In this document: piece after piece, positions 1-383 of the stretch
How the letters are laid out: each line of letters opens with the position of its first letter
How positions within the stretch are numbered: the first letter of the stretch is position 1
Assembly: GCF_003334335.1 (NCBI RefSeq)
Contig: NZ_QOWQ01000200.1
DNA length: 383 bases
Source: Escherichia coli
GTDB taxonomy: Bacteria; Pseudomonadota; Gammaproteobacteria; Enterobacterales; Enterobacteriaceae
Reading direction: 5' to 3' (one strand)
The notes under the pieces: generated by a model
Told to the model about the DNA's origin: nothing
The model's input: only the letters and a program-made list of their open reading frames with translations
The model's database searches: none
Position numbers and translations under genes: made by a program

Positions 1-383
1 TGTGCCAGCGCCTGGCGTGCCGGTGGCGGCAGAATCAGCGACTGCATGGCATCACGCTTTTCCTCAATCCGGTCAAAAACCCCCACCACCTCGTAAGCCC
101 CTTCAATAACTTTCTCCACCACATTTCCCCGGTGCGGAACACGCACTTCCCCCAGAGACTGACCACAGACGCATCCGTTCTGACAGACGAACCTGAAGTA
201 ACCCGGCAGCATCTGGTAGCTGGAGGTACCGTCATGGGAGTTGAGCAGAATGATTTCAGGGACATGTTCTCCGTTTATCTCTCCGGCCCGCCGCAGACGC
301 AGCATATGTTTTGTGTATCCCCGGCGGCCCGGGTCGCGCACACGGGTCTGGCAGGCGAAGAATGGCTGAAAGCCTTCCCGCTG
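1..383 (-). CDS. Internal fragment of a DUF932-family (YfjQ-like) protein of unknown function; truncated at both window edges, with N-terminus beyond 383 and C-terminus beyond 1
   Basis: Seen in sequence: the minus-strand frame with codons starting at 383 (383-381, 380-378, ...) runs 127 codons to position 3 with no stop, while the other two minus-strand frames hit stops. The translation has normal globular-protein composition. Recognition from memory: motifs such as EGFQPFFACQ.RVRD, HMLRLRR, PEIILLNSHDG.SSYQM, GEVRVPH and VIEGAYEV.GVFD resemble E. coli YfjQ and its island paralogs. The frame is missing from the ORF track probably because it has no start or stop inside the window. Confidence 0.78.

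Follow-up and report, generated by a model that had tools for sequence, protein, structure and literature searches.

A 76-residue open reading frame inside a DUF932 gene of Escherichia coli is very probably an out-of-frame shadow

The subject of this analysis is a stretch of 383 nucleotides (nt) from Escherichia coli (contig NZ_QOWQ01000200.1; hereafter the window, meaning the whole stretch at its full length) and an open reading frame (ORF) of 76 amino acids (aa) on its minus strand (35..265), which starts with an ATG at 265..263 and ends with a stop codon at 37..35. We conclude with a probability of about 96% that this ORF is not a gene but a statistical by-product of a DUF932 gene read one base out of register. 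The coordinates of the ORF, its ATG complementary to 263..265 and its offset of one base, as given by a first-pass annotation of the window, were all verified: since (383 − 265) mod 3 = 1, the ORF lies one base downstream of the minus-strand frame that spans the window. That annotation had called the ORF an out-of-frame shadow and the spanning frame the real one, missing from the program-made ORF list, and both statements hold. The spanning frame encodes a DUF932 fragment and is unlisted because the mechanical ORF tool leaves out any ORF that is open at a window end. Relying on the list alone would indeed mislead annotation, as a spurious 76-aa protein would be called and a fragment of a widespread DUF932 protein would be missed.

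The window (1..383) is an internal fragment of a DUF932 (PF06067) gene on the minus strand, with bases 383-381 as the first codon of the frame. Read from base 383, this frame contains no stop in any of its 127 codons, and the translated 127-aa fragment matches the Pfam DUF932 profile with an E-value of 2e-35 (123 bits, model positions 27-152 of 227). Many E. coli chromosomes contain the window at 100% identity; base 383 there falls in the register of the annotated coding sequence (CDS), and among the matches listed the window always lies under a CDS annotated as “DUF932 domain-containing protein”. At megablast sensitivity, it was matched in 4,468/5,426 complete E. coli genomes, with a median of three copies per genome; the DUF932/UPF0380 family occurs in 4,472 of these 5,426 genomes. 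The gene of E. coli SMS-3-5 (locus L001) comprises 819 nt and 272 aa, so that the window covers codons 57-183 of 272, and its start is preceded by AGGAG 6 nt before the ATG. The DUF932 product was found on at least 1000 contigs, its cluster at 90% identity has 18,561 members, and searches with the real frame returned 5,395 representative clusters at E ≤ 1e-3, 1,277 of them at E ≤ 1e-30. An alignment of 89 diverse DUF932 homologues revealed three invariant residues (C123, N125 and H140), all inside the window, where nine further residues are near-invariant (H82, R85, R87, E99, N104, H106, G108, G117 and G126). The AlphaFold2 model of the protein is confident (predicted local distance difference test, pLDDT, 93.6; predicted template modelling score, pTM, 0.89). 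We found no solved structure resembling this model, and a sequence search of the PDB gave only noise, such as a MAP-kinase-interacting kinase at E ~0.07. Membership in the phage/plasmid-like NCBIfam subfamily TIGR03299 was rejected, with scores of 18.3 bits (fragment) and 17.2 bits (full length) against a curated cut-off of 110.7; the protein is a distant relative of this subfamily at most.

It could be assumed that the DUF932 copy in the window is itself a decaying pseudogene without any functional frame, in which case the 76-aa ORF would be a fragment of the wreck. CP4-type islands, to which this gene belongs, are cryptic and rich in pseudogenes, a DUF905 pseudogene adjoins the DUF932 gene in E. 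coli O111:H8 (L036), and one related DUF932 copy (L023) carries an in-frame stop. However, in genomes matching the window at 100% identity the CDS is intact over its 272 codons and has a canonical AGGAG-N6-ATG start, the gene shows a ratio of non-synonymous to synonymous substitution rates (dN/dS) of 0.07-0.16, the invariant residues of the family are kept and the structure is predicted with a pLDDT of 93.6. A decaying copy is hardly credible in view of these data.

The composition of the 76-aa product differs strongly from that of the real protein. The product starts with MSLKSFCS, contains MWWRKLLKGLTRWWGFL and includes peptides unique to it, for example FCSTPMTVPPATR. The residues R, W, C, S and T together make up 47% of its sequence compared to 20% in the spanning frame. 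The first-pass annotation had described this richness as typical of off-frame reading of GC-rich coding DNA; the skew itself was borne out, but the DNA is only moderately, not strongly, GC-rich, because the G+C content amounts to 58.7% in the window and 54.1% across the span of the ORF. The G+C fractions at codon positions 1, 2 and 3 are 0.69/0.43/0.65 in the real frame, compared to 0.61/0.46/0.61 in 11 other annotated genes of the island, and 0.43/0.65/0.69 in the shadow frame. This periodicity, which had been proposed as a check, therefore separates the real frame from the shadow frame, but it cannot exclude an antisense frame described below. Leave-one-out log-odds of codon usage over the span of the shadow ORF likewise gave +20.2 bits for the real frame and −32.7 bits for the shadow ORF.

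The length of the ORF is within chance expectation. For this analysis, the 272-aa protein was synonymously recoded under three models, namely by shuffling its own codons, by using the codon usage of the annotated island genes, or by using the average usage of K-12. An ORF of 76 aa or more in the +1 frame appeared in 31% (own-codon shuffle), 44% (island usage) and 47% (K-12 usage) of the recodings; for the four non-aligned alternative frames taken together, at least one ORF of this length appeared in 53-63%. The window lies wholly inside a DUF932 gene of the YfjQ/YafZ-like kind (UPF0380), which belongs to a CP4-type island of E. coli and is read in the minus frame from base 383. In the +1 register, the conserved first and second codon positions of this gene together with its G/C-leaning third position avoid TAA, TAG and TGA by chance over 79 codons. 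An ATG happens to sit near the beginning of this stop-free run, and nothing maintains the resulting ORF.

In order to follow the shadow frame through related genes, 34 related loci with 46-96% protein identity were taken from a viral-contig collection; one of them (L023) was dropped and a codon alignment of the rest was built. The dropped DUF932 copy (L023, 1501..2301) has an in-frame stop, aligns poorly across the window region (39% nucleotide identity) and probably represents a frameshifted pseudogene. Of 36 other copies, only one (L036) has kept the shadow ORF intact. Between one and five internal stops interrupt the shadow frame in 31/32 other aligned copies of the viral collection, including copies that are 94-97% identical to the window at the nucleotide level over the ORF span, and close alleles at 93-97% nucleotide identity already contain one to three premature stops. 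Below 86% nucleotide identity, the shadow ATG is lost in all copies (25/25), being replaced by AGG, AAG or ACT. A premature stop also interrupts the shadow ORF in an E. coli chromosomal copy (L037), and the ORF is absent from K-12 yfjQ and from the homologue of IncF plasmids. At 98.7% amino-acid identity in the true frame, the shadow translation has already dropped to 83%. Whole-gene Nei-Gojobori dN/dS values range from 0.07 to 0.16 in the DUF932 frame versus 1.0 to 3.8 in the shadow frame. The synonymous substitution rate (dS) of DUF932 is 0.15-0.27 over the shadow span versus 0.22-0.30 over the whole gene, with differences between pairs in both directions; since it is not consistently depressed, it gives no hint of additional constraint. 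The 76-aa ORF is thus neither conserved nor under selection in its own frame, and we infer that it has no functional translated product.

The alternative to be weighed against these results is a young, lineage-restricted gene overprinted on DUF932 on the same strand, with its own ATG, in those E. coli alleles that keep the ORF intact. Several observations count against a pure shadow. The copy of E. coli O111:H8 (L036, +1 frame of 1501..2319; 95.9% nucleotide identity) retains the 76-codon ORF intact in spite of eight amino-acid changes, and another copy (L013) has no internal stop in the shadow frame, although its ATG is AGG. The shadow ATG is also preceded by GGAG 3 nt upstream (269..272, minus strand), and some authors hold that non-aligned shadow ORFs of bacteria are longer than codon-usage models predict (PMC3454372). 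Low-level, non-functional translation of the ORF may occur. In favour of a shadow, 109/125 substitutions within the window (87%) among the close copies fall on the third codon position of DUF932, which is the second position of the shadow frame, where each of them changes an amino acid; the chi-square P of this test is nominal and overstates independence, because the pairwise comparisons share phylogeny, while the direction of the effect is unambiguous.

Nevertheless, an overprinted gene appears very unlikely. Premature stops arise already among the alleles at 93-97% nucleotide identity, the substitutions concentrate on the second shadow codon position, the shadow-frame dN/dS (ω) is around 1 or more, and dS of the host gene is not consistently lowered across the span. 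The length is expected by chance (P = 0.31-0.47), composition and codon score are those of non-coding DNA, and the exact product was never called by gene callers among ~15 billion predicted proteins. We therefore rejected a functional same-strand overprinted gene. The patchy retention of the ORF, intact in L036 and broken in other copies at 93-97% identity, is consistent with chance. The GGAG motif arises from GGA GAA, two codons for Gly-Glu in the real frame, and is considered incidental, its spacing being suboptimal for a Shine-Dalgarno sequence.

Homology searches agree with the reading of the 76-aa ORF as a shadow. The comparison of the two minus-strand frames that had been suggested in the first-pass annotation gave a clear result: the spanning frame matches DUF932, whereas the 76-aa product has no match in Pfam, NCBIfam or PHROGs. 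Its exact sequence is absent from ~15 billion predicted proteins. A search against 5.8 billion clusters yielded five matches, all of them singletons. In three of them, the DUF932 N-terminus, read in its true frame, is followed by sequence of the +1 frame, which identifies them as deletion or frameshift pseudogenes, and another one switches frames several times. We rejected all five as independent homologues of the 76-aa product, since they are frameshift or deletion chimeras of DUF932. Conserved homologues, whose existence would have spoken for a gene, were accordingly not found by this search, and the ORF is broken or lacks its start in nearly all diverged copies. One of the five matches (P0003) was predicted in an ENA assembly and is encoded on a probably chimeric 708-nt contig; in its 123 aa, the strings VSYTHL and LSLIHI are repeated around the shadow-frame segment. 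We take these strings to be, in all probability, translated sequencing-adapter sequence.

The first-pass annotation had treated the DUF932 frame as the only frame spanning the window. It is the only one with family matches, but the window has two spanning stop-free frames, and the second, which runs on the plus strand from base 3 (3..383) in codon alignment with the DUF932 frame, had been overlooked. In SMS-3-5, this antisense frame is part of an ATG-initiated ORF of 291 aa (L001 5839..6714, minus strand in that locus) and thus of an ORF longer than the real gene of 272 aa. Composition is unable to reject it, because the G+C patterns of the two frames are mirror-symmetric and their codon-usage scores nearly equal (29.9 bits for the antisense frame versus 29.7 bits for the true frame). 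The true coding frame could therefore be sought on the plus strand, or both strands could be coding; the antisense frame is open across the window and over 291 codons in L001, and under average K-12 codon usage such openness has a probability of only ~0.002.

Under the codon usage of the island, however, where TTA and CTA codons are few, this probability rises to ~0.05. The antisense frame is open because the sense gene contains a single CTA codon and no TTA or TCA codons, and antisense stops are depleted in the same way in neighbouring island genes. The antisense product has no match in Pfam, PHROG or NCBIfam, and its exact sequence is absent from the ~15 billion predicted proteins. No Shine-Dalgarno sequence was found before the antisense ATG, and the whole-gene dN/dS in this frame is 1.3-5.2. 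Homologues at ~70-75% identity carry 2-13 stops in the antisense frame, K-12 yfjQ carries four and the IncF homologue eleven. Coding on the plus strand, alone or together with the minus strand, is even less likely than an overprinted gene, and, as judged from the sequence data, the 291-aa ORF is also a shadow, rejected by homology and substitution patterns. A further antisense ORF of 303 aa (L001 6797..7708, minus strand) runs unbroken across the adjacent genes for an antirestriction protein and a JAB/RadC-like protein, which share a common reading frame. Together, these two genes contain only one TTA, CTA or TCA codon, which suggests that an island-wide codon bias keeps antisense frames open.

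There is also a very slim chance that either ORF, the 76-aa ORF in the window allele and in O111:H8 (L036) or the 291-aa antisense ORF, represents a very young proto-gene, translated at a low level and too recent to have left a signal of conservation.

The remaining ORFs of the mechanical list are short and lie in non-coding frames of the DUF932 gene. On the plus strand, these are an ORF of 42 aa with a TTG start (241..369) and one of 35 aa (2..109); on the minus strand, there are ORFs of 23 aa (103..174) and 22 aa (275..343). The frames of these four ORFs contain two to six stops, and their codon usage scores approximately −58 to −67 bits. Scanning both strands of the window against Rfam at E ≤ 1 revealed no RNA family, and a consensus scan of the window for promoters and terminators gave no hit. 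A repeat search of the window returned two chance direct pairs of 10-11 nt and no inverted repeats.

The 76-aa ORF closely resembles the shadow ORFs described by Mir et al. in 2012 (PMC3454372). Like these, it is embedded in a genuine CDS of the same orientation with a frame shifted by one base, and shows a skewed composition, no homologues, no selection in its own frame and a length expected by chance. That study also reported that some long non-aligned shadow ORFs exceed model expectation; unlike the long ORFs stressed there, the 76-aa ORF does not exceed expectation and is otherwise a textbook case. The openness of antisense frames in “frame −1” is likewise a known effect of codon bias (PMC3454372), and the 291-aa ORF shares its cause, a bias against TTA, CTA and TCA codons, with other long “frame −1” ORFs. 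In contrast to the usual ORFs of this kind, it is longer than its host gene and could mislead a longest-ORF rule, while it has broken down in diverged homologues and is not under purifying selection. Overlapping genes with experimental support from ribosome profiling, expression or phenotype have been described in E. coli and Pseudomonas, mostly in antisense orientation and some of them with purifying selection (PMC9927249, PMC8850804). The embedded geometry is common to these genes and the 76-aa ORF, but the latter fails the evolutionary tests described above. It is an ordinary and well-understood annotation artefact.

The host gene belongs to a family found on mobile elements. The protein encoded in the window shares 73% identity with K-12 YfjQ, from the cryptic prophage CP4-57, and 63% identity with the homologue of IncF plasmids. 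It shares the mobile-element setting with the DUF932/UPF0380 members YfjQ (CP4-57), YafZ (CP4-6) and the homologue in the leading region of IncF plasmids, but the window gene is a distinct allele or paralogue and not yfjQ itself. In SMS-3-5, the island (L001) is of the CP4 type and adjoins a tRNA-Ser gene. Its gene order (GTPase, Ag43 autotransporter, DUF932, antirestriction protein, JAB/RadC-like protein, DUF987, hypothetical protein, YeeU antitoxin and CbtA toxin) agrees with the synteny of the UPF0380 members, in which the GTPase gene, with or without Ag43, is followed by DUF932, antirestriction, JAB/RadC-like, DUF987 and toxin-antitoxin genes.

Directly downstream of DUF932, two E. coli loci harbour a gene for an 81-aa “hypothetical protein” (L036 2319..2564 and L037 2322..2567), with a one-base overlap at the stop codon of DUF932. 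SMS-3-5 lacks this gene, and the distance between DUF932 and the antirestriction gene is just 91 nt there. The “hypothetical protein” that two E. coli records (H28 and H50) list under the match was considered as a possible instance of the shadow ORF and rejected, as it is in fact this separate small downstream gene with its one-base overlap.

DUF932 homologues occur on at least 5,000 plasmids, 4,434 of them predicted conjugative plasmids. In the IncF plasmid pCUVET16-394.1 (L039 7001..7822), the gene, whose product is 63% identical, lies in the leading region. It is preceded by ssb, a ParB-like gene, psiB and hok, and adjoins an SLT-transglycosylase gene and traM. The member of the family encoded by the F plasmid is named YubP. 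Both yfjQ and yafZ were listed as uncharacterised in a y-ome review of 2024 (PMC11551758), and in the literature on DUF932, yfjQ, yafZ and UPF0380 we found no functional characterisation. The PADLOC defence models gave no match to DUF932 or its two downstream neighbours. With low confidence, the genomic company suggests that the DUF932 protein may play a role in the establishment of incoming mobile DNA, since it is accompanied by antirestriction, RadC-like JAB and CbtA/YeeU genes in the islands and by ssb, psiB and hok in the leading regions of IncF plasmids.

The significance of the 76-aa ORF is restricted to annotation hygiene. At this locus, the true strand cannot be told from ORF length (291 versus 272 aa), G+C periodicity or codon usage; homology or substitution patterns are needed. 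With a confident fold that has no solved relative, its wide distribution and its proximity to genes for antirestriction and SOS inhibition, the DUF932/UPF0380 family that hosts this shadow is arguably more interesting than the ORF itself.
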